This document shows positions 2,170-36,979 of a DNA stretch of 64,000 bases, one piece after another. The notes under the pieces are model-generated. The model ran no database searches. It saw nothing but the letters and a program-made list of their open reading frames with translations, and was not told the DNA's origin. The translations under genes and the position numbers were made by a program. Source of the DNA: Candidatus Poseidoniales archaeon. Its GTDB lineage: Archaea; Thermoplasmatota; Poseidoniia; Poseidoniales; Poseidoniaceae. The stretch is from NCBI GenBank assembly GCA_012959275.1, contig DUDM01000043.1:2910-66909 (forward strand), written 5' to 3'. Every line of letters starts with the position of its first letter. Position 1 is the stretch's first letter.

Positions 2170-2865
2170 ATGGCGACAGTATTGGAAGGGCGCGGTCTTT
2201 GGAAGATTTACCAAAGTGGTTCAAACAAGATTGAGGCTTTGAGAGAAATTTCATTGACTATTGAGGCAGGTGAAATGGTTGCAATCATGGGTCCAAGTGG
2301 TTGTGGCAAGACCACGCTGTTGAACTGTTTGAGCGGTCTTGATGAATTGACTGCGGGTGAAGTATTGGTTGAAGGTATTTCTTTGACAGCCTCGGATGAT
2401 AAGCATCGAACAAATGTCCGAGGCAGAAATCTTGGCTTCATTTTTCAGAGTTTTAATCTGATTCCAGTACTAACGGCGGTTGAGAATGTCGAGATGCCTC
2501 TTCTTTTACAAGGAATTCCGGCCAAAGAGGCACGTCAACGTTCCTTAGATGCCCTGGATTTAGTTGGCCTGAAGAACTGGTCCACCCATCGCCCGATGGA
2601 GTTGAGCGGAGGGCAGCGACAAAGAGTCACCATTGCCAGAGCCTTTGTCCACGAACCAGCCGTTATTCTGGGGGATGAGCCTACCGGAAATCTCGATACC
2701 CGTACCAGCAACGAGGTCATGGATTTGTTATTCGAATTGAATGCAGAACGCGGCACTACGCTGCTAGTGGTAACTCATGATTCGGAAATTGCTGCCCGCT
2801 GTAGTCGAATCTTGCACATGGAAGACGGTTTAATCGTCAGGGATGAGAAAAGCGAAGAGGAATGA
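2170..2865 (+). CDS. ABC transporter ATP-binding protein, MacB/LolD/FtsE type
   Basis: Walker A GPSGCGKTT, Q-loop, ABC signature LSGGQRQRVTIARA, Walker B ILGDEPTGNLD, H-loop VTHD. Start placed at the internal ATG (MATVLEGRGLWKIY) rather than the ORF-track start at 2104. Directly upstream of the FtsX-type permease. Confidence 0.85.
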   Translation: MATVLEGRGLWKIYQSGSNKIEALREISLTIEAGEMVAIMGPSGCGKTTLLNCLSGLDELTAGEVLVEGISLTASDDKHRTNVRGRNLGFIFQSFNLIPVLTAVENVEMPLLLQGIPAKEARQRSLDALDLVGLKNWSTHRPMELSGGQRQRVTIARAFVHEPAVILGDEPTGNLDTRTSNEVMDLLFELNAERGTTLLVVTHDSEIAARCSRILHMEDGLIVRDEKSEEE

Positions 2866-2874
2866 GGTGTTCTA

Positions 2875-5800
2875 ATGTCTGAAACGCTCGTATTATCTGT
2901 TGGCTTAGGCCTGCATTTACTATGGGTTTGCGTTGCGCAATTTGTTACTAATCCTAGTACTAGGTCATTGAATTGGAAGAAGCATCTATTGGTCATTTTT
3001 TCTGTTCCTTTGATTTCTGTGCTGAGTCTTTGGTTAACTTTGGAGATGGGCGTATTCACCGCTTTTTGTTTTTCTTTAATGGTGGGTATTCTACTACACC
3101 AGGGCTTGTTGGTTGTTCTTTCTCCTCGCCATTTGGTGCTTTGGCGCTTGGCTTGGAATAATTTGGTTCGGCGTCGCCGCAATACCGCCTTGATGATGAT
3201 TGGACTTTTGGTTGGTGCCGCGATGGTCTCCTCTAGTCTAGTAGTTGGAGATTCGATGGATGCTACGATTAGTGCTGAAGTTCTGCTCCGTAGTGACACA
3301 TCCGACCTGCAAATTTCGGGGAGAGACCCTTTGACCGGTGCATTGCGGGAGTTGAATGAATCACGAATGCGTGAATTTGGTGAATTTCTGTTCAGTGATT
3401 CAAAATCACGAGAACATATCGACGGTTTTTCTATCAGTCGTAAGAAGTCGATATCCGTCATCAATGAGGCTGCATCCTTGGCTGAACCGGATGCACATTG
3501 GTGGGCTAGCGATCCGACTTTGGATGGCGCAGGTGGTTGGAGTTCAATCGGAGGAGTCTCATATTCTCAATTAGCCCATGAGGAATCAGTCCTTGGTCGT
3601 TCGATTTTTATCATCAACGAGGTCCTAGCAGATGAGGTCGGAGCAGGGCCTGGAGATACATTACTCATCAGTTGGAGTAGTTATGATGAAGATTATGTGC
3701 GAACAGATTATTCTGAAAATGTAGAGATTTGGAAGGTTGTGCCGATGCAAGGTGCGGCTGCTATTCAAGGCTCAAAGGGTGGTGTCATCTTTTCCACTCT
3801 TGCATCTGCCCAAGCCTTACAGGATGCTCAATCCTTGGTCAATATAATTCGCATTTCTGCAACTGGGGGCATCGATGATAGCCTTGATGCTGAGAAACTT
3901 CTCTATCCGCATGTTAGCCGCATCTTGGATGAGGCACTAGTGGCGCAAGATGCGTGGCTATTCACCGAAGGAGACCTTGACCTTGGCATCATCTCTCTCG
4001 TTAAATCCAGTCCTGTTTCGCGTCTTTCAGGCGAGCAGGTTAATGATTTGCGCAATAATTCAGTCGAGATGCTTGGCGAAACAGAAATCACCGAATTATT
4101 GCAGGCGCCCTTATTCGGGCTACGCTCAGCCGCAGGGCAAATTTTGACAGGATTACTTAGTAAGGAAATCAATGCGATAATTCCGGACGGGTCTGCAACA
4201 TGGTACATCCACCCAGAAGGCGTTAGCCGAGAATCAAACTTGGGAATATGGAATACTTGGCAGGTGCCGAATGGAACGCTATTACGCGATTACCAATTAT
4301 TAGAGGACGGGTTAGCAGTTTACCATGACGATGGAGTCGTCTTACTCGATGAGAATGCAGAGGAATTAGAATGGGGCGAATGGGACGAAAGCGACGAAAG
4401 TGACGATAATGCCTCTCCCCTCAAACTTAATGTGGGCTTTAACGATTCATTATATTCTCTATTTTTGCTTGATTCCATGCCATCTGTCTCGGACGGTTTG
4501 CAGTTAATTTCCCCAGATGCATGGAATTATGAAGTTCAAAATGCAGCCTTGTACAATACCTCCGAGGGCTTGGTAACCCACCTTGAAGGACTCCTGAAAA
4601 TTGAGACTTGGTTATTCGATGGAACTTGGCAATTACTCGCCGATGGCCCACAACATAAAATTGCAATAATCAACTCGCAGTTATTCATTGACGAAGGTCA
4701 AGGATATACCAACTTAGCAAATCAAACAACTACAGATTTAGGCCTACCAGAACTTGAGATTCTAAGTTTTAGCGGCTCTGACCTGATGCTCAGCGATTCA
4801 AGCATTTGGACCTTAAACAATAGTTTCACCAATACATCAATTGTATTAGACGATAAATGTGATGGGAATGCTTTTTTGAGGACAGAGGAATTGAGGTGTA
4901 CTACCTCATTTGGGGTCATAGTTGTTGAGGATGGAGAGAGCAGCATTAGATTACCAACCACGACAGAGTTAGAGGGGCTTGGAAAGATTCCCCTTTTGGT
5001 TATCGCTTCAAATTCTAATGCTGATTTGCCGGCTGTAAATGAAACTGAAGTTCGTCTAAGTTCTTGGGCAAATGAAGCACTACAAGGCCAAGATGGCGTG
5101 ACATTGGTTGGTGCATTTTCTGCCAGTCGCGGTAATACAACTGGAATTTTATTGGTTATCGGCGATGAAATACCTCTTATTCCTACTGTCCCAGGCCAGC
5201 CCGGAATCGCCGATGTTATCGTCGGCGTTGTCAACTTCAGTGTTGCAGAGCGATTGGCTTCAGCCGATGTTGATGAAAGAAATCTGCTAATGTTTAGTAG
5301 TTCAAATCTAAAACAACAATTTACCATGGATGCAGCCCTTGCCAACTTGCAGATTTGGATGGATGAAGAGGCTGACCAAGAAAGCGCGGGAATAATGGTT
5401 AACCGCGTTAAAAAAGAAGGTCTTGAGAATTCCAAAATGGCAAGTGGGAGCCTATCTGCTTTATTCATCGTATTCGGTTCTTTTACCATGTTAGCTGGAA
5501 TGTTGCTAGTTGTCAACATCTTCGTGATGCTTGCTGAGGAACGCAAAGTGGAGATGGGAATGATTCGAGCCCTTGGCTTACAACGCCCTGACCTGCGGGC
5601 ATTATTCGTTTTGGAAGGCTCTTTGGCTGCTGCTATCTCCAGCATCATCGGCTCGATTGTAGGATTATTCATCGGCTGGATTGTCGCAACCGGATTCGCC
5701 TGGGCCCTTTCCTCTCTTGATGGTGCATTCGTCTATGCATGGACATGGTCAAGCGTTATTGCTGGGGCAGCAGTTGGCTTCCTTGTCTCTTGGGCTTCAC

Positions 5801-7581
5801 TCTGGGCAACTGCAATGCGCAATAGCCGCCTCAATGTTGTTGCCGCAATGAGGAACTTGCCGCCTACAAGAGAAGACGGTCCTGCATGGTGGTCATGGCT
5901 ACTTCTAATCGGCCTAACTGGTTCCTCTTTGCTTTGTGTTGCTTGGTTTTTCCTCGGGGCAAGGGATTCGGCATTTGGGCATGGTCTTTGGAACCTTTCT
6001 GGTATTCTTGCATTACTCGGTGGAATTCCATTACTCCTCTATAATCTACCAAGCCTACTTTCCAATAAATTCACTCTTGCCGCAAAACTTCAGAGAAACT
6101 GTGCCCGAAACACCATGGCCGTTCTGGGTATTTCTCTAATTTTATGGGTCATGCTACCTGATTGGATTGACCCATTCCGCAAGGATTTGCTGCCAAATGA
6201 GTTCTCATTCATCGTGGTCGGCATCTCAAGTGTTGCTGCTGGTGTCATGCTCCTAACCTCAGTTGCACCCTTGTTGGCATCTGCAGTTGGACGTGCTGCA
6301 ACTGTCACAAAGCGTATTGGCCCTGTTGTGCCAACTGCCCTCGCTTATCCTCTTGCAACTCCATTCCGAACCGCATTAACTCTTGGAATGTTTAGCCTAA
6401 CGGTGTTCTCTGTTGTAGTACTGGCCGGATATAGCGCCCAATTTGAGTCTTATAGTGAATCATTTGTGGATGACGTTTCGGGAGACTTTGACCTCTTAGG
6501 AACAACTTCCTCTTGGGACCGACCTCTTCCATTGGAGGGAGGTTACGAAACGTGGGATTGGCCAGCAGATGTTCAAGCAGATGATTTCGACGGCATTGGA
6601 GTAGTTTCTCTAGGGGTTGTCAGATATGCCGATGCCGAGGATATCAATGCCGGTGAGACTGAACGAGTTCAACTGATTAGAGGAATAGATTCTGGTTTTG
6701 CTGAGCATGGGGGCTTACCACTCCACATCTGGGATCCCGCACTTGGGGATGATGAAAAGTCGGCTTGGCAAGCAGTTGCAAGCAATCCTAATTTAGCAAT
6801 CCTCGACGCCTCTTTTGGCATGGAATTTCAAGGTGCAGTTGACGAATCATCACCATTTTATCAACTCACTTTTTCAATTGGAGATTCGATTTTAGCAATT
6901 GACCCCGAAAACCCATCAATAAGCAAAGAGTTCACTGTAGTAGGCTTCCTTGATGAGGGCTCATTATGGTCGGCTCCAGGCATCTGGGTCAACCACTTAA
7001 GCAGTGCTGAGGAATTTGGTGCAAGATACACAAGATTGTACCTTTCTGTACCGGAAGGAACTAGCATGCAAGAAAAGGAAGAACTCGTTGAAGCAATGGA
7101 AAGAGGTTTCATCGATGACGGCATGGAAGTAGAAATCATTGAAGTCAGCGTAAAGGAGTTCCAGAGCGTTTTATTTGGCATTTTCAATATCTTCCAATCT
7201 TATTTGATGCTTGGCCTAGTTGTAGGCATCGCTGGATTAGGAATAGTTACTATCCGTTCAGTCAGCGAACGTTCTCACCAAACGGGAATCTTACGGGCTA
7301 TTGGATTCCAGCGAAGAATGGTAGTGGCAGGATACATTTTAGAATTAAGTTGGATCAGTTTGCTTGGAATTTTGAATGGTGTTGTTATCGGTATTGGATT
7401 CCATTGGTACCTCTATGACCGGTTTTGGCGCTCTGAAGGAGCTGAATTCACCATGCCTTGGCTTTCAATAGTTTCCATTATCCTTGCTGCATGGCTACTT
7501 GTATTGTTGGTTACAGCACTGCCTGTTCGACGTGCTGCGGCCATACGTCCGGCTGAAGCATTGCGTGAATTAACTTCTTAG
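2875..7581 (+). CDS. Giant ABC transporter permease with two FtsX/MacB-type modules and very large extracytoplasmic domains (1568 aa)
   Basis: N-terminal MacB-type start (LAWNNLVRRRRNTALMMIGLLVGAAMVSS). An extracytoplasmic domain of about 700 aa. First FtsX domain (MIRALGLQRPDLRALFVLEGSLAAAISSIIGSIVGLFIGWIVA). More TM helices and a second extracytoplasmic domain of about 280 aa. C-terminal FtsX domain (ILRAIGFQRRMVVAGYILELSWISLLGILNGVVIGIGF). Adjacent to the ABC ATPase. Confidence 0.8.
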   Translation: MSETLVLSVGLGLHLLWVCVAQFVTNPSTRSLNWKKHLLVIFSVPLISVLSLWLTLEMGVFTAFCFSLMVGILLHQGLLVVLSPRHLVLWRLAWNNLVRRRRNTALMMIGLLVGAAMVSSSLVVGDSMDATISAEVLLRSDTSDLQISGRDPLTGALRELNESRMREFGEFLFSDSKSREHIDGFSISRKKSISVINEAASLAEPDAHWWASDPTLDGAGGWSSIGGVSYSQLAHEESVLGRSIFIINEVLADEVGAGPGDTLLISWSSYDEDYVRTDYSENVEIWKVVPMQGAAAIQGSKGGVIFSTLASAQALQDAQSLVNIIRISATGGIDDSLDAEKLLYPHVSRILDEALVAQDAWLFTEGDLDLGIISLVKSSPVSRLSGEQVNDLRNNSVEMLGETEITELLQAPLFGLRSAAGQILTGLLSKEINAIIPDGSATWYIHPEGVSRESNLGIWNTWQVPNGTLLRDYQLLEDGLAVYHDDGVVLLDENAEELEWGEWDESDESDDNASPLKLNVGFNDSLYSLFLLDSMPSVSDGLQLISPDAWNYEVQNAALYNTSEGLVTHLEGLLKIETWLFDGTWQLLADGPQHKIAIINSQLFIDEGQGYTNLANQTTTDLGLPELEILSFSGSDLMLSDSSIWTLNNSFTNTSIVLDDKCDGNAFLRTEELRCTTSFGVIVVEDGESSIRLPTTTELEGLGKIPLLVIASNSNADLPAVNETEVRLSSWANEALQGQDGVTLVGAFSASRGNTTGILLVIGDEIPLIPTVPGQPGIADVIVGVVNFSVAERLASADVDERNLLMFSSSNLKQQFTMDAALANLQIWMDEEADQESAGIMVNRVKKEGLENSKMASGSLSALFIVFGSFTMLAGMLLVVNIFVMLAEERKVEMGMIRALGLQRPDLRALFVLEGSLAAAISSIIGSIVGLFIGWIVATGFAWALSSLDGAFVYAWTWSSVIAGAAVGFLVSWASLWATAMRNSRLNVVAAMRNLPPTREDGPAWWSWLLLIGLTGSSLLCVAWFFLGARDSAFGHGLWNLSGILALLGGIPLLLYNLPSLLSNKFTLAAKLQRNCARNTMAVLGISLILWVMLPDWIDPFRKDLLPNEFSFIVVGISSVAAGVMLLTSVAPLLASAVGRAATVTKRIGPVVPTALAYPLATPFRTALTLGMFSLTVFSVVVLAGYSAQFESYSESFVDDVSGDFDLLGTTSSWDRPLPLEGGYETWDWPADVQADDFDGIGVVSLGVVRYADAEDINAGETERVQLIRGIDSGFAEHGGLPLHIWDPALGDDEKSAWQAVASNPNLAILDASFGMEFQGAVDESSPFYQLTFSIGDSILAIDPENPSISKEFTVVGFLDEGSLWSAPGIWVNHLSSAEEFGARYTRLYLSVPEGTSMQEKEELVEAMERGFIDDGMEVEIIEVSVKEFQSVLFGIFNIFQSYLMLGLVVGIAGLGIVTIRSVSERSHQTGILRAIGFQRRMVVAGYILELSWISLLGILNGVVIGIGFHWYLYDRFWRSEGAEFTMPWLSIVSIILAAWLLVLLVTALPVRRAAAIRPAEALRELTS

Positions 7582-7693
7582 TTCCTATCAAAACCTCATC
7601 AATACTCACAAATCATCACCCAAAATCATCAGAAAAGAAGTTGCAAAGCCGGGAAAATGTAATTTATCTTTCCCAAATATTACTAAAATCCGC

Positions 7694-7708
7694 CTATACT
7701 ATAAATAC
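7694..7708 (+). promoter_or_regulatory. Putative archaeal TATA box/BRE for the 7758 surface-protein gene; GGAGG ribosome-binding site at 7746-7750
   Basis: ccgCCTATACTATAAATACgg lies about 50 nt upstream of the ATG at 7758, in an A/T-rich intergenic region. GGAGG sits 8 nt upstream of the start codon. Confidence 0.35.
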
Positions 7709-7757
7709 GGCAGGGTCTGTGCACGAAGGCACCGACTAATAGGTTGGAGGACTGAAT

Positions 7758-10700
7758 ATGAAGAATATTGTGCCAATGACACTGATTCTGCTGATGTTTG
7801 CGAGTGTATTCGCGAACACAGCATGGATTGAAATGAATGAGAATGAAATGGACGGGGCTGCTGATGGACGTGCTGACGATGATGTCGGCATACTAGGCAT
7901 CCTTGAGCCAAGAGCGACCAAGACCGATACAATGACCGGAGAACTTCGGAACACTGTAAAGGCCGGTGATGAAGTTAACTTCGTCGTTTCTGTGAAGAAC
8001 CATGGAACCAACAATGTGACTGAGATGAATATCGAAGCCACCATCTATCTTGCAGATGGAACTGTTGCCACGGATTTTGCAGGAAATGACTTAACTTGGT
8101 TAGATGCAGTTATCTGTGATGATGCACAATCATGTCCAGTTCAGTCGTTGGCTGCTGGAGCATACCTTAACGGTGGTTCATACTCCGTTAGAGATGCATC
8201 AGGCGCTGCTATTGCATGGGCTGCACCACTTGGTGCTTACACAATCGCAATTGAACTCGATGTAATGAGTGGCGATGATGATATCACCAATGATGAATTC
8301 ACTGTTGACATCACAGTTGTTAACTGGTATGACATTGCTATTGACCTTGAATGGAATCCTTCCGTCGAACAGGCTGAAGGCGCTGGGCCTCATGATTTCA
8401 CACTGACTGTCTCCACAGATGGTTCTGAAGAATGGTCTGCTCGCAGTGTAGTCGTCGACTTGATGATAACTGGAGCCGCATTAGATACTGCAGTTGACGG
8501 TGATGGCAATGATATCAAAGGAACCACTACTCACGAAACCGGAACTTCTCAAATAGTGGACGTCTTCTTTAACGAGAGTGCTCCATGTGACGACCCAGGA
8601 CCTGACAATATTACTGGTACTGCTGACGATGGACCTTGTGATGCACGCAACGGTAATGGTAGTAGATTAGTTATCGATTACCAAGACTCTTGGACCTACT
8701 CAGGAACAGTAACACCAGATGCTAATGCAAATGGTGGCTACCAAGTTGAGGCAGCTCTAGTTAACTACACACTGTACGGAGCCGCAGCAGAGTGTCAAGA
8801 ATCTGGCGAGGTAACGATAGACAATGGGCCTGATGGAATTGAAGGAACTGAAGATGATATTAGAGAGATTAGAACATTCATGAATATTTGTGAAGTTCCA
8901 GTTGAAACCGATGACAATAACTCAAACAATGAAGATAAAATCACTGGATTCATCGGTTCTTACCACAACATTGGGGTATCTAGCCTCGTCATTGCACAAG
9001 GATACGATTCCACCGGTAATGGTGAAGCAACCTCGATGCGTGGGGACCAAGATGAAATTGATGTTGGATTTAGTCGATTACATGCAATGGTAGAACACCG
9101 TGGTTCATCTGGCACAGGTCCTTATGATTGGGAAGTTACCTTCGTAGTGACGGATGTATATGACAATAACTCTGTCGTTGCAACTTACACTGCTGATGAA
9201 TGTCCTGCTGGAGTAGCACCTCCTTATACACACCTAGACCTCGGTGAGGGACTGACTGCACAACCTGCAGGATATGCATGTTCATCCCACGAATTCGATT
9301 CTGGAACCTACAAGATTACAGCAACAGTCGCAATGGTCAATCCAACCAACCCTGACGAGAGCAGCGTTGACGATTCACAAACTGCAACAGTTGAAGCACG
9401 TAATCACGACCCAGTCATCAGCCTATCATTGACTAGCGAGGGCGACATTGTAGTTGGAGACATTGTTTCCTTCGACGTCAGTGCTTTCGATGCTGAGGAT
9501 ATTACTGGAGAGAGTTTGACTTACTCATGGAGCCGCATTACCACAGACAGCATGAGCGTAGATATCGGTGAATGCAGTCCGAGTGATGATGGCGCTGGTG
9601 GATTAACCAAAGGAGAGCGCACTTGTGCAGTACCTGTTGATGGTTCATGGGCAACGACTCTACCAGTCACTGTCAAGGTCACCGACCCACATGGTGGAGA
9701 AGCATCCGATAAGGTCGATCTAAAAGTTTGGAACAGGCAGGTTGCAGAAGCAACAGCAGCAAGTGATGCAGTTAGCATTTCATATGACCTAACATACATG
9801 GCAGTTGCAGATTTCAGTATCACCGCTTCCGACTCTGCTGCGATCGAGGGAGTCCTACTTGGAAACTCCGAGGAAGGCGCAGATTCAGTCTACGTTATTG
9901 ACTACGCACCTGTGACCAACTACGGCCCTGGAGATGTAGGCAGCAATGCTTTGTCAATCACCTTCCCTGGAAGCAGCACCGAAGATTACAGCCTATGGTA
10001 TCAATATCCAGGCCAAGATTGGATTCTTCTTGATGGAGAGGCAGAGCAAGATGGTGCGACCAACATGAAGTTGGAATGGGTCAATCTTACCTCTGGAACG
10101 CTCAATAATGGTTTATTGGGAATCTTCAATGCAGCAGCTGGAACTGGCGCTGTACCAGCCAATGGAGTTAGCAATGCAATTGGTGTTAACATGGCAGGCG
10201 GTCTAATCGCTGTTCAGTGGACACTCGAGAATGGTGGCGTAGACCTTCTAAGCGGTGATAAGATTCAAATCTGTAGCGTTACTAATGCAAATGAGACTTG
10301 TACCAGTGTTGATAAGGATGCAACTCAGCACCTTCTAACTGGTACACACGGGCAGGTCTTCGATGTCACTGTGAGTGTAATCAATGTTAATGGAGCAAAT
10401 GCAAATGTCAAAACTTTCACTACTACTGCTGATGCAGAAGTATCACCTGTACCGACTACTACATTCGGTTCCATTGCAAATGGAAGCACCGCTTGGACTT
10501 TCACCATAACCACCGCTGATGCTGGAAATGCAGTAAAGTTGTACGTTTGTTGGAAGGATTCTACATACGAGGCATCCCAGTTGACCCCTGATGATTTGAG
10601 TTGTCAGCCAATGGATATTGCAGATGCTAGTGTTGATATTACCAAGCCATCAGTCACCTCCGAGACCGTTTACCACTTCTCTATATTCGCAGAGGATAGT

Positions 10701-10931
10701 TCTGGAAACGTTGTAGCACTATCAGATAAAACTACCCAGATTCGCTATGGTGAACTCGACGATCCAGGCGCAGGCACTGATACTCTCGATGATGACAAGA
10801 GTGGAACAACAGGTGTTCCAACTTGGACATGGGGAGTTATCATCGGCATAGTCGTTGTAGCATTCGGAATTGGCGCATTCATCCTTAGCCGTGGTGGCGA
10901 GGGTGGAGAAGGCAAGGAATGGGATTATTGA
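7758..10931 (+). CDS. Large cell-surface protein (1057 aa): signal peptide, CARDB/Ig-like beta-sandwich domains, C-terminal TM anchor
   Basis: N-terminal signal peptide MKNIVPMTLILLMFASVFANTAW. CARDB-like segment (GDEVNFVVSVKNHGTNNVTEMNIEATIYLADG). Acidic, Thr/Asp-rich Ig-like repeats. C-terminal helix GVIIGIVVVAFGIGAFILS followed by RGGEGGEGKEWDY. Confidence 0.75.
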   Translation: MKNIVPMTLILLMFASVFANTAWIEMNENEMDGAADGRADDDVGILGILEPRATKTDTMTGELRNTVKAGDEVNFVVSVKNHGTNNVTEMNIEATIYLADGTVATDFAGNDLTWLDAVICDDAQSCPVQSLAAGAYLNGGSYSVRDASGAAIAWAAPLGAYTIAIELDVMSGDDDITNDEFTVDITVVNWYDIAIDLEWNPSVEQAEGAGPHDFTLTVSTDGSEEWSARSVVVDLMITGAALDTAVDGDGNDIKGTTTHETGTSQIVDVFFNESAPCDDPGPDNITGTADDGPCDARNGNGSRLVIDYQDSWTYSGTVTPDANANGGYQVEAALVNYTLYGAAAECQESGEVTIDNGPDGIEGTEDDIREIRTFMNICEVPVETDDNNSNNEDKITGFIGSYHNIGVSSLVIAQGYDSTGNGEATSMRGDQDEIDVGFSRLHAMVEHRGSSGTGPYDWEVTFVVTDVYDNNSVVATYTADECPAGVAPPYTHLDLGEGLTAQPAGYACSSHEFDSGTYKITATVAMVNPTNPDESSVDDSQTATVEARNHDPVISLSLTSEGDIVVGDIVSFDVSAFDAEDITGESLTYSWSRITTDSMSVDIGECSPSDDGAGGLTKGERTCAVPVDGSWATTLPVTVKVTDPHGGEASDKVDLKVWNRQVAEATAASDAVSISYDLTYMAVADFSITASDSAAIEGVLLGNSEEGADSVYVIDYAPVTNYGPGDVGSNALSITFPGSSTEDYSLWYQYPGQDWILLDGEAEQDGATNMKLEWVNLTSGTLNNGLLGIFNAAAGTGAVPANGVSNAIGVNMAGGLIAVQWTLENGGVDLLSGDKIQICSVTNANETCTSVDKDATQHLLTGTHGQVFDVTVSVINVNGANANVKTFTTTADAEVSPVPTTTFGSIANGSTAWTFTITTADAGNAVKLYVCWKDSTYEASQLTPDDLSCQPMDIADASVDITKPSVTSETVYHFSIFAEDSSGNVVALSDKTTQIRYGELDDPGAGTDTLDDDKSGTTGVPTWTWGVIIGIVVVAFGIGAFILSRGGEGGEGKEWDY

Positions 10932-10984
10932 ATCCCAAGCCGACTCCAGCATGAATGAGTAATTTAACTGCATAGCAGTAATAC

Positions 10985-11030
10985 GGCCAGCAGGGTCCTT
11001 GAGGGGGCCCTGCTGGCGACCTTTTTTTCT
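10985..11030 (+). terminator. Hairpin plus T7 tract terminator downstream of the 1057-aa surface-protein gene
   Basis: CCAGCAGGG-tccttgagg-gCCCTGCTGG (perfect 9-bp stem) followed by cgaccTTTTTTTc. Archaeal termination at oligo-T. Confidence 0.55.
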
Positions 11031-11490
11031 TAACATCAACAGCACAGCAGTGAGGATTACAATCCTTGGTTGTGTTAATTTCTTGAAATTTTATGTAGCC
11101 GCATTTTGTTGGCAAAAGAAAATTCCACTTGATTTTCAAATGATTATCAGCTCAGGCCATTGGATTATTATTAAAATTGGAAATAATATTCAATGTCAAG
11201 TAATTTCGTCCTCTGATAATACTCCTGTTCTGGCTTAATCCCCATGCCATTTTTCAAATCCTCTAGGCAATATCGCCAAATTAGTTGGAAAATGGCCTCC
11301 GGCCGCGCCTAGTGTATAAGGGTCATCCTACTTACAAACGGATTGTTCTGCCAAGTGCCGGAGAATTGTTACGGAAAAGGGCCTAATCCGCTCTAAGTCT
11401 ATCGCTTTTTCAAATAAGATGTACCCCAACACTCATAAGGAAAACAATTACTCCAGCAGCCTGCATACAGTCCGTAAGGGGTTTGATGAC

Positions 11491-20400: not shown

Positions 20401-23400
20401 ACTGTACGTCCGGTCATTGAAGGAAACACCATCTATAACTCGAAAGAACCAATCTACATGCGCGGTGCACTAGGCTGGGACATTAGCGAGAACACCATCT
20501 ATGGTGATGGAAATTCCGGACACGCTGGAATTTACGTCAAGGATGGATACGGTTCTATTGATGGAAACATCCTTATCGATGCAGATGGTGGAATCCTCGT
20601 AGACGGTCTATCCTATGGCTACTCAGCCTCGGTGACCAACAACGAGATCTACCAATCCAATGGAAGAACTGCAGTTAGTGCAGTCGGAATTTGGGCAGAA
20701 GATTGTGGAACATCAACTCTCGAGACTGGTGGCAATGACATTACCATAATGGGCAATGCACTTGTCACTGATGGATGCGATATCGAAGATACAGGCAGCG
20801 TATTTACCGGAACCGGCGGAAGCGGCGGAATGGTCTACACTGTCAACATCATGGCAGGTTATTTCGCACCACAGAACTTGAGCATTAACGAAGGAGACAC
20901 TGTCAAGTGGCGCCTACAGAATTACTCGAGTGGCACAAACTACCAACACGGTACCATCTCAAATGATACCGATGGAAGTGGCTCACCACTCTGGGATTCT
21001 GGTGCAATGAACTTGGGAGGTACCTTCACCCACCTCTTCACCACTGCTGGAACCTACAACTACTCTTGTACAAACCACCCTACCACTATGTGGGGAACAA
21101 TCACTGTTGCCTCAGGTTCAACCTCATCTTTCACCAGCATCGGATTAGATGTTGTGGGAAGTAATGATGATGTTTCCTTGAATGGTACAGAAATCAGCGG
21201 CTTCACTACTGCTTACGAGCAATCTGGTGGAAGCCTCTTCCTGAATGGTGGAGCTGATTTGGAAGGTGGCGACTATGCAGTTGACATCGATGGAACTGAT
21301 GTTTCATCAGATGGCGGAATGTTGTCAGCAACCTCTGCTACTGGAGTAGGTCTATACTTCACCGGTGGTGGTGCTCTTGCACTAGTCGATTTATCGACTG
21401 ATGCACCTCAGGGTGTCTACATCGATGGAAGCACAGATGGATTGTTCGACTGGAATGGTGGAACTGTCTACAGTGGTACTGGTCTCTATGCGGTCGACAA
21501 GGCTGAAGGAGATATTCAGAACATGACTTGGACAGACGCAAGCACCCAAATCTATGCGGGTAGCGACACCAAGATTACCAGTGTTGGAAACACACTCGAC
21601 GAGAACAAATTGGTAGTTGTCACCGGTGCAGAAGTTCATGAAGCAAACTTGCTTGACTTGAACGTTAACCACTTAGGTGCAGCATCAAGCAACGTTGGAC
21701 TGTTGATTACTTCCGAGAGCGGCAACAAGGCAGCATACGTTAGCCCTGACATGCGCAATACCGGAGTATTGGCTGTTGGAACATCTGGTGACGCTGGAGA
21801 CTTATCCGACTGGTTCGGTAATGTTGACAACCCATCTGATGACCTGATGCCTGGTGTTATGTCAAGCGATGGCGCTGGTGAAGACTTCATGGCTACATGG
21901 GATGAGACAAACTTGTTCCTCGCTCTAACTGGAGTCGACATGGATAATGGAGATCTAATGATCTTCCTAGACACTGCTGATGATGGAAGCACAGACGGCT
22001 GGGAGTGGGACGGTACAACACCATCCCTCGGCTACAGCGCAAACTATGCTTTCTGGGCAGAGGACGGTAGCGATTCGCCAAATGATGGAGATACAACTTA
22101 CAGTTACTCCTTGAAGAAGTGGCGCGGTGACAAGTGGGATGACAGCCTAGGCTGCACCAACATGGCCGCTCACGTCGGATGGACGGATAACACCAACACA
22201 GAGTTGAAGATTCCGTGGGATTGTATCGGAAGCCCAAGCAACCGCTGGGTCCGCATGTCAGTAGTTGTTCTTGAGGAGACTGGTGGCGTAGTTGCCAGCA
22301 ACCACCCAAGCACCGGCTACCTCAGCATGAACCTCGGCAAGGCTAACCTTGGCGATGGTACTCTATCTGATGAGCGCTTAAACTACCGCAGTTATATCGG
22401 TAGCAACTCGCCAAGCCCATCTGAGGATTACAACATCTTAGCAAAGGTAGCTGCAGATTGCGCAGAAGACTGGGGCAACATCGACGGACTAGATATGTCA
22501 GAAAACCGCGACGAGGACATCGACATTCTACGTGCATGTCCAATCATCACTGGTATTGAAGACGTTTCATACGATGAAGACAGTGGAGCCCAAACCATCT
22601 CCTTGACAGACAAGGCAGATGATGTACAGGATTCGGCAGCTTCTCTATCATGGACTCTTGAAAGCGATGTTGATGCTGATGGCGACTTGTTAACTGTAGT
22701 TCTAGTCGCTCACGACTTGACTATCACGCCTAAGGACAACGAGTTCGGCACCTACCTGATTTTACTAACTGTAGAAGACAGCAATGGTCTAAGCGCTTCC
22801 AAGTCGATGTTGATTACCGTCAACAACGTCAACGATGCACCAACAATCTGCAACACAGGACGCACCGATTGTATGCCAGTGTTCAGCGATGATGGATTCG
22901 ATAACCTAAACGTTCTCGATGAAGGATTCGGTAGCCACAGCAAGCCACTCGGTTTGATTGCAAACAGCGCTGGTTCATACATCACCGATCAGGCCAACGA
23001 GCAAACACAGACTCTATCTAACTCAGAGAATGTACCTCAGGCTTACATCTTCGGTGCAAGCGTACCAGCTGAGTGTGGCGCATTCAGCGTTGCAGTTGCC
23101 AACAATGAGTTGAGCATCACAGAAGTAGCAGATAACGAACTTGGTGGAGTTTGTACAGTCACTCTAACATTGAGCGACGGTGCAAGCGTCAACGATGCAG
23201 CAACAAGTGTTGATGTTGACTTCACAGTCAACCCAGTCAACGATGTGCCAGTTATCCCAGAGTACGATGTCAATACCGATGCACACCTCACCACCGGTGA
23301 GGGGGTTGCAGTTGCAACACCATGGTCAGTATCAGTGACAGAGGACACAGGCTGCGTAAATGCAGTTTGTGCTAACACCGATGCTCTAACCTTCGACCTA

Positions 23401-25008
23401 TCTGGCTTGAAGGCTGATAACGACCACAATGATGCAGACTTAACTTGGACTTGGGTAGAGACATCAAGTTGTGATGTTGACAATTACTTCGAGGATATTT
23501 CCTTTAACGGAAACGATTTGGAGTTCACCCTGATTCAGGATGCAGCAACCAACGTGCCATCTGAGGAAATTGATTTCTTGGATGACGGTGGAATACACCA
23601 GCAAGTGCCACTCAGTGGAGAATACTGTCCGATTAAGGTTGTACTGAGCGATTCGCCAAGTGCACCTTCGTACATCCCTAACTATGGTCTAACTACTGCA
23701 ACATACAACCAAGAGACCACCTCCACAATCTTCAGCATACGTGTTGAGAATACCCGTGAGATGGTAGCAGACTACTTGTTAGATGTAGACACTGGCTTTG
23801 ACTTTAACAGTGTCAACTTCATCATGCCAGGAACTAACATCCCAATTGATGTTGACATCCAGCACGAAGGAGATGAGGGACCATACAAGTACGACCAACT
23901 ACTCAAGGTTCAGTTCTTGAGCAACGGTGCTGGCGGATTAGCCACCAGAGACACACAGTTCATCGTACCACCAGCATGGGGACAATCTGTCAGCCTTGGT
24001 AGCAAGGTACTGATTGATGAGTCAACCACCCGTGTCGGAGTGCGTGTTGACGTCTTGACTTGTAAGGCAGCTTCCTGTCCAAGCCCAAGTGCAGCAACAC
24101 CAACTGACTTCATCACCAACAGCCCAGCAGCACACCGTGCAGCAGACACACCTAACTCCGCATGGAGCGAGCCAGGAGCAATCGGATACGATGCTACTAC
24201 TGGTGTCTACTCACAACGCAGACCTGCACTAGAAGATGGCAACTGGTCAAACAATGCAATGTTCTCATCATTGATTGCATCTGACCCATCAGGTATTCTA
24301 GACAGCGGACAAGATCTACCAGTAATGGTCGACACAATGGCACCATCTGCGGTACCATCTTTCGCACCAGGTCTAGTGGCAATCAGCGCAGCAGGATTAT
24401 TCGTTGCTGGTCTAATGTTGGCAAGTCAACGCCGCATCGATGATGATGAAGAGTTTGTACAATCAGCACTTGTTGATGACGAGCAGGCAGTCAGCCCAGT
24501 TATTGCTACCATCTTGATGGTCGCAATAACAGTGGTTTTGTCTGGTGTAGTATACGTATGGGCCAGTGATCTAGCTGACCAGCCAAGCAAGTCGGTTCCA
24601 CGAATCGCCTTCAAGGTTGAGAAGACAGACCCAGGTACCAACGGATACTGGTCCATCATCGTGACCAGCGCAAAGGAGCCAATAGCAACACAGGCGACTG
24701 TAGTAATGGTCGAGTGGGTCAACGATACCGGAAGTCAAATCGAGTCATTCAAGTTGTCTGATTCTGAGGGCACATACGGTTTCGCCCCGGTCAATTCGGA
24801 AAGCTTCATCACATTCTCTGACAGTATCAAGTGTGAGGCTGCGGATGAGTGCACCTCAACATATGGAGATGGAGATGCAATCCACATCAGGATGAGCGAC
24901 CCGAGTGGTTTCCTGTTAAAGGACAACGGAGTACGTGTTACACTGAAGTACGTCCCACAGGGAGTTGGAACTGCAAGCGTTCTGAAGACCTTCAACCTTG
25001 AAATTTGA
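11491..25008 (+). CDS. Giant cell-surface protein (about 4500 aa; uninterrupted ORF 11419..25008): signal peptide, parallel beta-helix repeats, cadherin-like repeats, embedded cupredoxin domain, C-terminal TM anchor plus pilin-like module
   Basis: Single 13.6-kb ORF with no stop. Likely start at MINGSKMKK (11491) or MKK (11509), which places the signal peptide MKKTTIWGGLFSALLLCALMAIMPFSS at the N-terminus. Ser/Thr/Gly/Tyr/Asn-rich with many N-x-S/T sequons. Beta-helix-like repeats (e.g. NNGGTGTGIWFEQTSSTLSDITVSNAEVGMKS). Cadherin-like repeats with NVNDAPTI / NPVNDVPVI. Cupredoxin domain at 20830-21110. C-terminal hydrophobic anchor ...GLFVAGLMLASQRR followed by a DUF1628/archaeal-pilin-like segment. 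Confidence 0.8.
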   Translation: MINGSKMKKTTIWGGLFSALLLCALMAIMPFSSMVDNPVSETDYTESETAEQKDDPFHLPETIEQVEWEYALEDELQGMRDVNQKAFVHDGEISVLTSSEPLHYLEAGAWENIDTNIVPTAFGWEVSKNVFKTTFSSDVGAGVAVQMDPNVDPIIVGIAPQIVTLDEAGVAPEMHHVAPSHDAISVGGNVIRYPVADGYDLDYEVSSVQMKQNLVIRQQPVLDESVAWFGLREIIRLPAGYALFIGDEVVGEEIVSTQELMTIRSLETGEVLAEIPVPVVLEPGAEEQYTATFFVSFTNGQIVLTTAIDTDWLMDEDRVFPLSLDPTIKRTSSTGGYCYRYYAYCYSGNSRYFYRYNARIYYLPWSKYQFSSSNAMPSGSTTSSVKWKQYVGYSNTWGSSSYDAAIMMTCGTASRYSYSIASASCSSTLLGMPSSSQYGNTKARKMVSSIWNSPSVGTFSTGTGWKTVTVNSAYEGIITNAANNSASIGMTHINTNSNYYYMYARYGGSYDSYLEITYTGGSDSTPPSADFVPYEVTSYKEGARTFFTTLTDPAGIDTTSSGNPRLFYKIGSGSWTGVSASSIGTCSSSAAKCRFKATTASISAGDSVDYYWAFQDLAYAAGMAQSNNFATLPAGGSGSPSSNTPPSTVFNFDVEDVANAGTARKMTILTTDVHAGNRYTPSKWFDRQVTYYDDNDEYVFEFDTSDCGSGASSCFYATSYYFYSQWQMQWTTSPSSGYNGLGGTKSGDAKFHKDDFGYLSITTNNGPGMNLIYVYDSTSNKWAMVGLGDASTGIDEPLSGGDVEPSYRSSYGYTQAYNIKVPGDITGTFGKFDFNNTYSSSKANWMCVGTNGWIYFFRSTSSNPICTSGYYYIYSTSYRWSGFAMGSGYYGRMASSGEVSSKVGRVAPTPDIYAPEIVHSALKDSHSRDRTFTFEITDAGDPPSGLNTSSAAGVGPTLYYTITDPDGTVNAQQSKVLSPDDTRANCIASTCVWSAELTDIERGASLSYHTTARDISTVSSGTNSVTTSANSFEVGDPNKVFIIEWHDMGYTNSYTCTYQVKLYDVTNEIEFHYDTGCRVYYDYATVGYQDSTRTKGATLRTEQGYMAGGNPHTNNYRITTDASSHSSETFTAGLTEITNYQTAIAGNSNGMPYGYYCASSYYWNSYKNGCDANLDMPDGFTFDYFGNTFNGSSSTSRVMISRQGSMSLKSTSSTQPERAMTTWYTTMPKLPYSSNTYSRANLIAPWWGYYTSYYCYDNTALDCGVRYRVMPFEGKGTDIDADITQDTSWDLVDSPIRVNPSGDYLSVNANLNIEPGVVVQVAQGKGISFDGACDTFTVSGNDTDGDNNHVRFEGQYGQTWTGIAFTDSCTTTDGTNDRHQFSYVDFVNTSDYAIAAGSRHGSSPSSNANVGNFTMDHVTFSNVKGAVSHGSGQGTVFDISDFEVNDASESCFLFPDDAIVTLTDGEMDGCNSDNSYQHGAVTDATSGASSSSTGTASGSLTVENVAITDSEANLIRSFAENIYISNVSATSSANQARYALRLLGSGGSGTHSAVINNFTATSYGYGVKIGAEDSYSLTNVDIGTSTLTLSPGTSTTSGPVGDDAVIDSLEAGGMGIQRTLPTMSNIDLGTGELSITGNSPSSTQTSISDLDAGGIGVSGCGYNLYFGNVDISDTSDTGYLSGSCSSSAAQNTILVEGGTMASSQSSNNIIYARNSKITLGGVAITGQTAMGNYVAKASTNGRITLIDVTFGGNDCADAGGDAGNCWLEVSSSSGSIWLGGIGTATTFKEKNSVRTLKPGTTVTSFVMDSSGASLFMIGTQVTDSNGEADVWTISGTCVSAGCSSHDHGTYFDAYGPAGIHSAANTSFGLGDDTFLRLTQPPITLSDSGMDCAYLATNQSMSALDTAGDGIYILDDGSILLDADLTLDGCTIQMTESKFIIRSDATNSPTLTINNGGELEMIKGSGGTFSELKAASAAYPLHITLGDGGTLDLQGVYARNFAQDSTQQGALIIGPGATVSLTDGTVVYGDAASSKDMATIKVNGGTLSVLDASVINNGGTGTGIWFEQTSSTLSDITVSNAEVGMKSHNAAPIVNGFTLSNNDVGLDFYGGMSLPTIYRSTLLSGESNGWTTYGFDLSSLIGKQYVQLGFESVFAGGNAHPRYNYYTSKYYNIYDRMQYEVTLDNGAVFNYSIDQAGKDSAGYWDDPTSDSSDYGGWGNYSCGLYGYVQNPAYRDYGYYYYFHNYGPYTQSSNGYYGANAEPDQFGFRWEAGETSTASSLYYPYHYWGYYWPSSQFGSNYQGGIYEPPSGFDGLWSNYNVCIDYAYTYYQSPGTGARLAMPIIDTLNTGTNSGTSGNIVGLKLYIDVLHKGADYYQDRLDFVGRSSNNHNDMGDWARESGKPTFTQGTITGADIGIEIGGNFAAAVVENVEITSPTTTGLKVSGSTASSFDYLNVSGGSYGAYTTLTSRGKLHLKNIDFDNQGVAGVSYLKDIAGSISGSVTNSAGAAISYGVLTTAERNLGIDLSGNAIGVLTAGSGDINLEGNTFANAKDFVISGSSTVTFIDGTVDESTVDVSGNGVFNRARSLIASITADSNDVVGAEVYLMDSSGKPTGNGVTDANGDADGIIYYTAVVNKAGLTNPVLAGYKLATVAQIGAYSSSTADFRYYYDSVTLDANAATIADVALTNKFDARVCYSFTSTSYHMIAPCASSLSTNGKRTIGTMVEYGYYGAVDWDMSGKTIMVDAPYMYLKGKSGTNINDWSDSTIINTGSYDYYGTTNYRSTYPYNAKFHVENSTMIALSGVDENTGVPFGFDLGYYAWSDVNPYYKNSTFIGLQTIAAANEYGNVMPDRFVVEDNIIVSNTPVVPGSTSFYYDEMCVVNGAVNGASVARNQFSGCAIGVRSMNTIYSYYYGRSTWGADNMTIEGNTFDGGVLDVWFALGSYSDDNVVKDNIHTGATQTEYAIYAQDRNTVRPVIEGNTIYNSKEPIYMRGALGWDISENTIYGDGNSGHAGIYVKDGYGSIDGNILIDADGGILVDGLSYGYSASVTNNEIYQSNGRTAVSAVGIWAEDCGTSTLETGGNDITIMGNALVTDGCDIEDTGSVFTGTGGSGGMVYTVNIMAGYFAPQNLSINEGDTVKWRLQNYSSGTNYQHGTISNDTDGSGSPLWDSGAMNLGGTFTHLFTTAGTYNYSCTNHPTTMWGTITVASGSTSSFTSIGLDVVGSNDDVSLNGTEISGFTTAYEQSGGSLFLNGGADLEGGDYAVDIDGTDVSSDGGMLSATSATGVGLYFTGGGALALVDLSTDAPQGVYIDGSTDGLFDWNGGTVYSGTGLYAVDKAEGDIQNMTWTDASTQIYAGSDTKITSVGNTLDENKLVVVTGAEVHEANLLDLNVNHLGAASSNVGLLITSESGNKAAYVSPDMRNTGVLAVGTSGDAGDLSDWFGNVDNPSDDLMPGVMSSDGAGEDFMATWDETNLFLALTGVDMDNGDLMIFLDTADDGSTDGWEWDGTTPSLGYSANYAFWAEDGSDSPNDGDTTYSYSLKKWRGDKWDDSLGCTNMAAHVGWTDNTNTELKIPWDCIGSPSNRWVRMSVVVLEETGGVVASNHPSTGYLSMNLGKANLGDGTLSDERLNYRSYIGSNSPSPSEDYNILAKVAADCAEDWGNIDGLDMSENRDEDIDILRACPIITGIEDVSYDEDSGAQTISLTDKADDVQDSAASLSWTLESDVDADGDLLTVVLVAHDLTITPKDNEFGTYLILLTVEDSNGLSASKSMLITVNNVNDAPTICNTGRTDCMPVFSDDGFDNLNVLDEGFGSHSKPLGLIANSAGSYITDQANEQTQTLSNSENVPQAYIFGASVPAECGAFSVAVANNELSITEVADNELGGVCTVTLTLSDGASVNDAATSVDVDFTVNPVNDVPVIPEYDVNTDAHLTTGEGVAVATPWSVSVTEDTGCVNAVCANTDALTFDLSGLKADNDHNDADLTWTWVETSSCDVDNYFEDISFNGNDLEFTLIQDAATNVPSEEIDFLDDGGIHQQVPLSGEYCPIKVVLSDSPSAPSYIPNYGLTTATYNQETTSTIFSIRVENTREMVADYLLDVDTGFDFNSVNFIMPGTNIPIDVDIQHEGDEGPYKYDQLLKVQFLSNGAGGLATRDTQFIVPPAWGQSVSLGSKVLIDESTTRVGVRVDVLTCKAASCPSPSAATPTDFITNSPAAHRAADTPNSAWSEPGAIGYDATTGVYSQRRPALEDGNWSNNAMFSSLIASDPSGILDSGQDLPVMVDTMAPSAVPSFAPGLVAISAAGLFVAGLMLASQRRIDDDEEFVQSALVDDEQAVSPVIATILMVAITVVLSGVVYVWASDLADQPSKSVPRIAFKVEKTDPGTNGYWSIIVTSAKEPIATQATVVMVEWVNDTGSQIESFKLSDSEGTYGFAPVNSESFITFSDSIKCEAADECTSTYGDGDAIHIRMSDPSGFLLKDNGVRVTLKYVPQGVGTASVLKTFNLEI
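20830..21110 (+). other. Cupredoxin (type-1 blue copper, plastocyanin/halocyanin-like) domain embedded in the giant surface protein
   Basis: MVYTVNIMAGYFAPQNLSINEGDTVKWRLQNYSSGTNYQHGTISND...GTYNYSCTNHPTTMWGTITVA. Upstream His ligand (YQHG) and C-x2-H-x3-M (YSCTNHPTTM) on a beta-sandwich-like sequence, the T1 copper ligand set. In frame with the giant ORF. Confidence 0.6.
24487..25008 (+). other. Archaeal type IV pilin / DUF1628 (archaeal flagellin N-terminal-like) module forming the last 173 aa of the giant ORF
   Basis: AVSPVIATILMVAITVVLSGVVYVWASD... matches the hallmark hydrophobic N-terminus of archaeal class-III-signal-peptide pilins (consensus roughly [KR]G-VSPVIATVLLIAITVVLAAVLY), followed by a beta-rich domain of about 140 aa. 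Here it is preceded by a TM anchor (24337-24435) and a 17-aa acidic linker instead of a short basic leader. Confidence 0.5.
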
Positions 25009-29819: not shown

Positions 29820-29828
29820 GGTGAGAAT

Positions 29829-30899: not shown

Positions 30900-30908
30900 G
30901 GTGATAAG

Positions 30909-35657: not shown

Positions 35658-35681
35658 GCCTTTGCCGCTCTCCCATTATGC

Positions 35682-36929: not shown

Positions 36930-36979
36930 GTTGCTGCGTGGCAGGCGAAAACCTTTGACATTGTGACAGCAGCGCATGT

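Follow-up and report, generated by a model that had tools for sequence, protein, structure and literature searches.

A type VII ABC system with a duplicated FtsX permease lies in a conserved gene block with two large surface proteins in Poseidoniales

The DNA analysed here is a 64,000 nt stretch of contig DUDM01000043.1 from a Candidatus Poseidoniales archaeon (the window). It encodes, in tandem on the positive strand, an ATP-binding cassette (ABC) ATPase, a permease of 1568 aa with two FtsX modules, a surface protein of 1057 aa (p1057) and a giant surface protein with an open reading frame of 4529 aa (the giant). These four reading frames had been listed in a first-pass annotation of the sequence, and all of them are present. 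We found that they belong to a conserved block of approximately 25 kb that comprises eight to nine genes, not four, and whose order is unbroken in every related locus with enough sequence. We suggest, with a probability of roughly 0.4, that the ATPase and permease act as a mechanotransducer of the type VII ABC class, by which the membrane anchored p1057, the giant, or both are positioned, assembled or remodelled.

Conservation of the gene block

Related loci were the 80 best of 320 permease relatives, found by scanning a single genome for each GTDB species, and were fetched with their flanks. They are metagenome-assembled genomes (MAGs) of Poseidoniaceae and Thalassarchaeaceae, except for three bins labelled bacterial. 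p1057 is visible in 69 of the 80 loci and the giant in 49. Homologues of the giant were searched for with its C-terminal 1200 aa. Synteny was also read on independent metagenome or MAG contigs (L001-L003, L005, L089 and L094). The three bins with bacterial labels are contigs that carry the archaeal block and were binned as Yoonia sp. (L009), Rhodobiaceae bacterium (L081) and Salipiger bermudensis (L082); the labels are likely due to binning contamination of public assemblies.

The block is organized as VTT (negative strand), PIN (positive), TatA (negative), ThiS (negative), ATPase, permease, p1057 and giant. This order holds down to 32% permease identity among the 80 loci, and it is the same on the independent contigs. 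In each sufficiently long locus, the last four genes, from ATPase to giant, lie side by side in the same orientation. The gene directly upstream of VTT, on the other hand, comes from 22 unrelated families when 40 loci are compared. As no break was found inside the block, we conclude that it has been selectively kept beyond a low background of synteny. The first-pass annotation had proposed a comparison of gene neighbourhoods, and this comparison places the ABC pair next to both large surface protein genes across Poseidoniales and in one divergent lineage. The conserved order amid reshuffled upstream neighbours suggests that the ABC pair and the surface proteins work together.

The divergent lineage is known from metagenomes and has the order GyrB, GyrA, DUF368 (negative strand), PIN, TatA (negative), ThiS (negative), ATPase, permease, p1057 and giant. 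Its p1057 homologue has 1334 aa and its giant homologue is cut by the contig end. Identities are 30-32% for the permease, 22-26% for p1057 and 28-36% for the giant, and the spacers within the cassette are tighter (6, 55 and 102 nt). The ATPase (54-57%) and PIN (41-43%) are no further away than in the most distant Poseidoniales sampled, and we therefore do not claim that the lineage lies outside the order. The permease of this lineage, P0114 (1230 aa), is the nearest relative that lacks a counterpart of window aa ~361-828, which form an insert in the first extracytoplasmic domain (ECD1). The cassette is kept with this shorter permease and thus persists through deep divergence independently of the insert.

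Co-variation was analysed in 25 related species with all six proteins complete, by regressing pairwise distances on the mean of VTT, PIN and ATPase. With these three proteins regressed out, partial correlations were 0.75 for permease and p1057, 0.87 for p1057 and giant and 0.48 for permease and giant (Mantel p = 0.0002, n = 25). The residuals of permease, p1057 and giant against any single background gene ranged from -0.35 to 0.34. Within the permease, co-variation with p1057 and giant respectively was strongest for the ECD1 insert (0.84/0.68), followed by the second extracytoplasmic domain, ECD2 (0.60/0.34), the ECD1 core (0.54/0.32), the central transmembrane (TM) segments (0.47/0.22) and the C-terminal TM segments (0.14/0.00). 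Such a gradient would fit a co-evolution of the outer domains with both surface proteins.

The ABC ATPase and the permease

The ATPase carries an intact Walker A motif (GPSGCGKTT), signature (LSGGQRQR), Walker B with catalytic Glu (ILGDEPTG) and H-loop (VTHD). Its best NCBIfam matches are LolD, YbbA, MacB, DevA and FtsE, each below the equivalog cut-off; together with the ABC_tran match in Table 1, they bear out its earlier description as an FtsE/LolD-like ATPase.

The permease matches Pfam FtsX in two stretches (9.4e-29) and MacB_PCD at aa 1166-1406. PDB sequences of MacB, YtrF, LolC and LolF match both modules (aa 858-945 and 1400-1564). In brief, a hydropathy scan, which was also the source of the signal peptides and C-terminal TM segments given below, places approximately three extra hydrophobic segments at the N-terminus, then TM1 (aa 106-124), ECD1 (aa 125-854) and three TM segments. 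After four linker TM segments between the two modules (aa 1009-1130) come TM1' (aa 1167-1185), ECD2 (aa 1186-1431) and three TM segments. The Pfam and PDB matches agree with the proposed MacB/FtsX-type permease with two FtsX modules and large extracytoplasmic domains, for which sizes of about 700 and 280 aa had been given. That the domains are large is correct; the scan puts them at approximately 730 and 245 aa.

The permease thus has the FtsX-type module of four TM segments, twice in a single polypeptide as in the YbbP, ADOP and BceB class, and its gene abuts that of a cognate ATPase of LolD/MacB/FtsE type with intact motifs. Between TM1 and TM2, the MacB/LolC Porter-Sabre type fold is recognized in ECD2 by Pfam and in the ECD1 core by an AlphaFold model. 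On this sequence evidence, the predicted assignment of the pair to the type VII ABC systems, of the kind with a duplicated permease, is secure. Neither permease nor ATPase scored above the cut-off of any curated NCBIfam subfamily.

The confident N-terminal part of the ECD1 model superposes on the periplasmic domains of LolE, LolC and MacB with TM-scores of 0.65-0.68 (E 8.6e-8). It should be noted that the model was built from 8 sequences and is poor (pLDDT 49), with the LolC/E-like core as its only usable part. Structure prediction of the domain, as suggested in the first-pass annotation with a MacB-like and a novel fold as the two outcomes, therefore gave a MacB/LolE/LolC-like core, and an insert with pLDDT below 50 for which no match was accepted. 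A 50-sequence profile found no PDB match for the insert, and the best match of ECD1 was to LolE at an E-value of only about 0.2. Weak beta-propeller-like matches of the insert were rejected (probability at most 0.8, E above 0.04). Comparison of ECD1 with p1057 and with the giant by hhalign revealed no common domain.

An exhaustive search of 1.84 billion representative proteins with the ECD1 profile gave just 128 hits, and full-length ECD1 was confined to proteins with lengths of 1453-1619 aa. In duplicated FtsX permeases at a greater distance (approximately 950-1400 aa), the match is limited to the first 250-315 positions of the profile. The outgroup permeases P0253 (1277 aa) and P0255 (1383 aa) from Thermoplasmata have a similar overall architecture at 25-30% identity.

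The surface protein p1057

p1057 gave no significant match in Pfam or NCBIfam. Its AlphaFold model (pLDDT 80) has approximately nine beta-sandwich domains of Ig/FN3-like type and is all-beta, with helices only in the signal peptide, in a few turns of 4 residues and in the TM anchor. Structure matches were generic alone (Ig, FN3 and MG). A CARDB-like protein had been proposed here, and this holds in the loose sense of a beta-sandwich fold; membership of the CARDB family does not, as Pfam gave no match even at E 0.5. We found 67 full-length homologues, and all named ones are from Poseidoniales or Euryarchaeota.

The C-terminus (10790-10931, aa 1012-1057) consists of VPTWTWG, the TM segment and SRGGEGGEGKEWDY, and is nearly invariant. 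The cytoplasmic tail reads ...RGG...(D/E)WDY, and the terminal (D/E)WDY-COOH is kept even at 22-26% overall identity. This suggests that the tail may be a docking motif for a partner in the cytoplasm or at the membrane face. With its signal peptide, beta-sandwich array and C-terminal membrane anchor, p1057 has the layout of archaeal S-layer or major surface glycoproteins, and it is possibly the main surface-layer protein.

Two ideas on the export and sorting of p1057 and the giant were rejected. The adjacent tatA gene raised the idea of Tat substrates, and the N-termini of both proteins are without a conserved twin-arginine motif. An archaeosortase-type sorting signal (VPTWTWG-TM-R in p1057, VPSFAP-TM-RR in the giant) gave no match to NCBIfam CTERM models even at E up to 10. 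The two segments presumably resemble C-terminal sorting signals of exosortases or archaeosortases, such as VPXXXP-CTERM and IPTL-CTERM.

The giant protein and its pilin module

The giant probably starts at Met25 (nt 11491), a residue that is invariant in 31 orthologues. Its median identity is 47.5% over approximately 2100 aa, compared to 34% for the permease and 32% for p1057, and it is collinear across the order. Collinearity and a conservation above that of the permease are unlike a fast-evolving repeat adhesin, which weakens the earlier description of the gene as one for a giant adhesin. The first ~2000 aa have no Pfam match, and the first 1900 aa have no PDB match with a 31-sequence profile. 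A cupredoxin/plastocyanin-like domain is found at aa 3148-3230 (20860-21108), along with weak beta-helix and Big_9 matches. Patches rich in Tyr and Cys were observed, e.g. at aa 361-400 (YCYRYYAYCYSGNSRYFYRY...) and aa 2243-2282.

The last 173 aa of the giant resemble archaeal type IV pilins and class III signal peptide proteins, and open with the canonical hydrophobic segment AVSPVIATILMVAITVVL. This module is recognized by Pfam Pilin_N (2.4e-9), TIGR02537 (2.2e-12) and PDB 8fj5 (1.6e-6). The conserved hydrophobic N-terminal segment of type IV pilins is thus present, but its placement differs. In known pilins the segment is N-terminal, behind a short leader, whereas in the giant it begins at aa 4357, in the same frame as the preceding 4,356 residues with their TM anchor and acidic linker. 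The arrangement of VPSFAP-TM-RR, linker and pilin in one frame is near-invariant in homologues, and Pilin_N was found on every annotated giant orthologue (L001-L003, L089 and L094).

As the linker has no ATG, GTG or TTG codon, the pilin module of the window can be produced only in fusion with the giant. In other lineages an in-frame ATG lies nine codons upstream of the module. With a TM anchor running out-in, a cytoplasmic linker and a pilin helix running in-out, a site of the prepilin peptidase type (EQA|VSPV) would come to lie on the cytoplasmic side. The giant with its pilin module may therefore possibly be a polyprotein that is cut by prepilin peptidase. No prepilin peptidase or pilus assembly genes were found in the window.

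Transcription signals

The ATPase and permease genes form one operon, and the median spacing between them is 0 nt (75 loci). Median spacers across loci are approximately 190 nt between permease and p1057 and 450 nt between p1057 and giant. The TATA box and the hairpin with T7 reported in the first-pass annotation (7694-7708 and 10985-11030) are both present in the sequence. In 49 of 69 loci, a TATA-like motif is present in the 120 nt preceding the p1057 orthologue, compared to 1 of 79 for the permease. The hairpin (10986-11017) has a folding energy of -30.7 kcal/mol (z = -4.4), and none of 200 shuffled sequences was equally stable. A comparable hairpin and T-run follows p1057 in 31 of 49 loci. 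It follows the permease in just 3 of 74, and for this reason read-through from the ABC operon into p1057 is possible. The giant is probably a separate transcription unit.

Comparison with known systems

Type VII systems use ATP to move extracytoplasmic domains that act on partners or on membrane-embedded molecules, and do not pump substrates across the membrane (PMC5985334, PMC12646458). The gene for the extracytoplasmic partner often lies next to those of the ABC system. Among the closest known systems is YbbAP-TesA of E. coli, which has one chain with two FtsX modules, a LolD-like ATPase and a co-evolving partner encoded by a neighbouring gene, and which works by mechanotransmission rather than transport. 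YbbAP and TesA have also been co-purified (PMC12646458). YbbP, however, has approximately 800 aa and 10 TM segments, compared to 1568 aa, approximately 15 hydrophobic segments and a 730 aa ECD1 here. The neighbour of YbbAP is a small esterase, whereas the neighbours in the window are very large Ig-array and pilin-fused surface proteins of an archaeon with a single membrane.

LolCDE is similar in that the ECD1 core superposes best on LolE and LolC, that LolD is the best match of the ATPase and, conceptually, that it acts on membrane anchored proteins. Scores are far below the equivalog cut-offs (lolCE 44.8 bits compared to 362, LolD 247 compared to 308). LolCDE has two separate permease chains and not one fused chain, and the surface proteins here are predicted to be TM-anchored, not acylated; there is no outer membrane, and no gene for a LolA-like carrier is annotated in the window. 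The best NCBIfam family match of the permease is ADOP (TIGR03434), also a duplicated FtsX family. Only the C-terminal ~130 aa matched (model positions 676-802; 45.2 bits compared to a cut-off of 622.3), and the permease is not a member.

FtsEX with EnvC, PcsB or RipC is likewise a type VII system that regulates an envelope-remodelling partner without transport of a substrate. FtsX has a single module with a small extracytoplasmic domain and coiled-coil activator or hydrolase partners, whereas p1057 is predicted to be all-beta and without a hydrolase domain, and there is no peptidoglycan here. BceAB shares the duplicated FtsX permease, one large extracellular domain, two ATPase copies and an action on lipid-carrier complexes (PMC9169098). 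In BceB the large domain is placed between TM7 and TM8 of the second module, and BceB works with the two-component system BceRS; here the largest domain is in the first module, and no kinase or regulator gene is adjacent in the window or in L001-L003. A MacAB-TolC system is not indicated, as no HlyD/MFP domain was found in neighbouring genes or in the annotated related loci (L001-L003, L089 and L094).

Proposed role of the ABC system

We suggest that the permease is a single pseudo-heterodimeric chain, like YbbP or BceB, and presumably works with two ATPase copies. Its extracytoplasmic domains would be set in motion by cytoplasmic hydrolysis of ATP, and ECD1 with its lineage-specific insert would be the likely contact surface for a partner in the envelope. 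p1057 and the giant, which are encoded by the next two genes downstream, are the best candidates for this partner. The system would position, assemble or remodel these proteins, which are presumably exported by Sec and anchored in the membrane, and would not transport them across it. Its action may thus resemble that of FtsEX or YbbAP on a partner encoded by a neighbouring gene. The data show the family, the domain layout, the conserved gene order and the co-variation, whereas physical contact, direction of action and biological process are our inference. We favour a mechanotransducer because the cassette is kept, because it is more compact in the divergent lineage, because read-through into p1057 is possible, because co-variation is graded, and because YbbAP-TesA offers a precedent.

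Several observations weigh against this role. The block also holds PIN, TatA, ThiS and a flippase-like gene (DedA or DUF368), and adjacency therefore points to the ABC pair no more than to these genes as the partner of the surface proteins. The nearest outgroup pairs, L091 and L093 from Thermoplasmata MAGs, have the permease gene beside an ATPase gene but otherwise unrelated neighbours; no homologue of p1057, giant, VTT or PIN was found within 10 kb in either, and L006 is similar. The ancestral role of the pair therefore did not need p1057 or the giant. Homologous pairs without giant neighbours had been named in the first-pass annotation as evidence against a dedicated link; they occur in these three outgroups, and not within the sufficiently long Poseidoniales loci, and so count in part against such a link. 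In addition, the 1230 aa permease of the divergent lineage is encoded with p1057 and giant despite lacking the ECD1 insert, and the insert can therefore not be essential for any interaction. The model of the insert is unreliable (pLDDT below 50). Co-variation, which was controlled with VTT, PIN and ATPase in 25 related species, could reflect shared selection on all surface-exposed sequence and not contact. Finally, p1057 has a TATA-like box and a terminator of its own, and the giant lies behind a spacer of 390-450 nt.

Some of these observations would also be expected if the pair had kept an ancestral housekeeping function, as in the Thermoplasmata relatives. It would then extract or expel lipids, peptides or small hydrophobic molecules, in the manner of MacB, YbbAP and many uncharacterized FtsX permeases, with no functional tie to p1057 or the giant and with the block kept for other reasons, e.g. 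a shared chromosomal domain or expression context. We consider this the main rival, somewhat less likely than the proposed role. Outgroup pairs of the same architecture stand alone, the block includes the apparently unrelated PIN and ThiS, the transcription signals are separate and the ATPase is of a generic LolD/YbbA/MacB type. Poseidoniales also carry other FtsX systems (supplement of PMC9723583). A housekeeping system would, however, leave unexplained why no break occurs inside a block flanked by 22 different upstream neighbours, why the cassette is kept and more compact in the divergent lineage, and why, of all regions of the permease, the ECD1 insert shows the strongest co-variation.

The upstream edge of the block may point to another process. 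The gene is DedA/VTT in 64 loci, and the non-homologous DUF368 (PF04018, 'undecaprenyl phosphate translocase-like') replaces it in L003 (1320-2261, negative strand) and L100 (7252-8472, negative strand). Reports of translocases for polyprenyl phosphate, C55-P, concern these two families, DedA and DUF368 (PMC9876793, PMC12893004). The presence of DUF368 in the DedA slot of two divergent lineages looks like non-orthologous displacement, and the swap hints at an island for cell envelope or glycosylation functions. The permease might then act, together with the DedA/DUF368 gene, on intermediates or complexes linked to polyprenyl (dolichyl) phosphate in the outer leaflet, and so serve the glycosylation of surface proteins. 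BceB is a duplicated FtsX permease that recognizes complexes of lipids and antibiotics (PMC9169098), and ECD1 has 12 N-X-S/T sequons where approximately 6 are expected. Against this, sequon density is not elevated in p1057 or the giant, three genes of mixed orientation separate the flippase-like gene from the ABC genes, and the block has no glycosyltransferase or AglB gene. The replacement of DedA by DUF368 may also be a single evolutionary event, and a translocase role of the archaeal proteins is predicted from family likeness. We regard a role in lipid-carrier processing as very unlikely.

Least likely is the dedicated export that the first-pass annotation had put forward, in which the system would translocate the giant proteins or pull out their TM anchors in the manner of LolCDE for release or transfer. 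In its favour, the ECD1 core is LolC/E-like, both candidate substrates are TM-anchored and adjacency is conserved. Against it, p1057 and the giant each carry a signal sequence of ordinary type at the N-terminus and a TM anchor at the C-terminus, the invariant WDY tail of p1057 and the TM-linker-pilin hairpin of the giant indicate that the anchors are kept and used, no LolA or MFP carrier or adaptor gene is annotated in the window, and no type VII ABC system is known to move a folded protein across a membrane.

Significance for marine group II

The proposed mechanotransducer can be extended to the block as a whole, which brings together a type VII ABC motor with a 730 aa outer domain, a likely major surface protein and a 13.6 kb giant gene with a fused pilin module. 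The block could be a previously unrecognized archaeal envelope machine of Poseidoniales-type marine lineages, in which a duplicated FtsX ABC motor would mechanically link ATP hydrolysis in the cytoplasm to p1057, with its invariant WDY tail, and to a giant polyprotein with a pilin. This is a long shot. If true, the machine would be a new apparatus for surface assembly, adhesion or motility, with a pilin made stoichiometrically with its giant anchor protein.

The ABC-FtsX block is a robust order-wide feature of a globally abundant archaeon that is uncultured, and the functional link between its parts is what we propose. Poseidoniales (marine group II, MGII) have been described as the planktonic archaea with the highest abundance in the surface ocean (PMC6461757). 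If the parts work together, the block would form the core of the MGII cell surface, with a bearing on particle attachment, virus recognition and grazing, and would extend the mechanotransmission paradigm of ABC systems to archaea. The gene block is not mentioned in the MGII genomic and transcriptomic literature that we searched; as far as we found, the giant-pilin fusion and the conserved block are undescribed.

In one metatranscriptome study, an 'ftsX-like permease' ranks in the top 5% of MGIIa genes by transcription (PMC9723583). We did not equate it with the present permease, as MGII genomes carry other FtsX permeases. The same study reports a differentially transcribed 7.9 kb 'plastocyanin (petE)' gene in a MAG of MGIIb (PMC9723583), which is probably the giant gene. 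A 'plastocyanin' label derived from one small cupredoxin-like domain can mislead the interpretation of metatranscriptomes.

Other genes of the block and its surroundings

The features of the block are listed in Table 1. Pfam TatA_B_E was found at the TatA position in L001-L003, L005, L089 and L094, and L100 has a homologous reading frame there. Pfam ThiS was found on the gene at the corresponding position in L001, L002, L005, L089 and L094. The ThiS/MoaD-like protein ends in GG and is a possible SAMP-type small modifier.

Table 1. Position of the genes, domains and signals of the block in the window.
Feature	Position (nt)	Strand	Evidence or remarks
VTT/DedA-family membrane protein, upstream edge of the block	317..964	-	Pfam VTT_dom 1e-15; same position in 64 related loci
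PIN_6 domain protein	1021..1497	+	Pfam PIN_6 2.1e-8; 65 loci and divergent lineage (L097/L099/L100)
TatA/E-like twin-arginine translocase subunit	1499..1807	-	NCBIfam tatAE 2.9e-13
ThiS/MoaD-like small protein	1859..2092	-	Translation ends ...LLPPLSGG
ABC ATPase, LolD/YbbA/MacB-NBD type, 231 aa	2170..2865	+	Pfam ABC_tran 6.9e-35
Duplicated FtsX permease, 1568 aa, two type VII modules in one chain	2875..7581	+	Pfam, PDB, NCBIfam
ECD1 (aa 125-854), LolC/E-like core and lineage-specific insert	3247..5436	+	AlphaFold model, profile search
ECD1 insert (~aa 361-828, about 450 aa), beta-rich	3955..5358	+	Not aligned in outgroup permeases
ECD2 (aa 1186-1431), MacB-like periplasmic core domain	6430..7167	+	Pfam MacB_PCD 4.1e-12
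TATA-like box before p1057	7700..7707	+	TATAAATA; GGAGG at 7746-7750, ATG at 7758
p1057, signal peptide, Ig/FN3-like array and C-terminal TM	7758..10931	+	Hydropathy, AlphaFold model
Hairpin and T7 terminator-like element after p1057	10986..11028	+	Hairpin 10986-11017, T7 at 11022-11028
Giant surface protein, ORF of 4529 aa	11419..25008	+	Collinear orthologues
Giant, VPSFAP motif, TM anchor and RR (aa 4312-4339)	24352..24435	+	Conserved in P0019-P0026
Giant, acidic cytoplasmic linker of 17 aa (aa 4340-4356)	24436..24486	+	No ATG/GTG/TTG codon
Giant, archaeal type IV pilin-like module, AVSPVIATILMVAITVVLSG... and ~150 aa	24487..25008	+	Pilin_N, TIGR02537, PDB
HAD-family hydrolase after the giant	25129..25821	+	Pfam HAD 3.9e-16; same position in L087 and L088

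The HAD gene is found 3' of the giant in all three loci where this region was seen (the window, L087 and L088). Further downstream CinA, PolD, Pelota, FTHFS and flotillin recur, and the window itself encodes the PolD small subunit and Pelota, which mark it as archaeal. The window has an inversion in this region, the strand of CinA and PolD with respect to the giant gene being the reverse of that in L087 and L088, and an inserted maltodextrin or starch utilization island (25838-41452) between HAD and PolD. In brief, the island encodes a solute-binding protein, two permeases, a MalK-like ATPase, a GH13 amylase with a glycogen-binding module, a phosphorylase-like protein, a GH77 4-alpha-glucanotransferase and a 1490 aa GH57 protein with a glucodextranase-type C-terminal module. 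In L087 and L088 the island is missing at this position, and HAD is directly followed by CinA and PolD.

In L087 (ERZ28548058 contig_14579, 1-24251) the FTHFS/flotillin segment lies on both sides of a truncated gene for the C-terminus of the giant (1416 aa). This gene starts mid-domain and has no N-terminal sequence of the giant upstream, and a block of several kb is repeated on both sides. Based on the repeat and the mid-domain start, we did not accept it as a real break of the cassette; the probable cause is an artefact of long-read assembly or else a recent rearrangement.

Away from the ABC/FtsX genes, the window encodes on the positive strand a 771 aa protein without a Pfam match (44016-46331) and a 913 aa protein with Big_9/cadherin-like domains (54471-57212), the latter looking like a surface protein.

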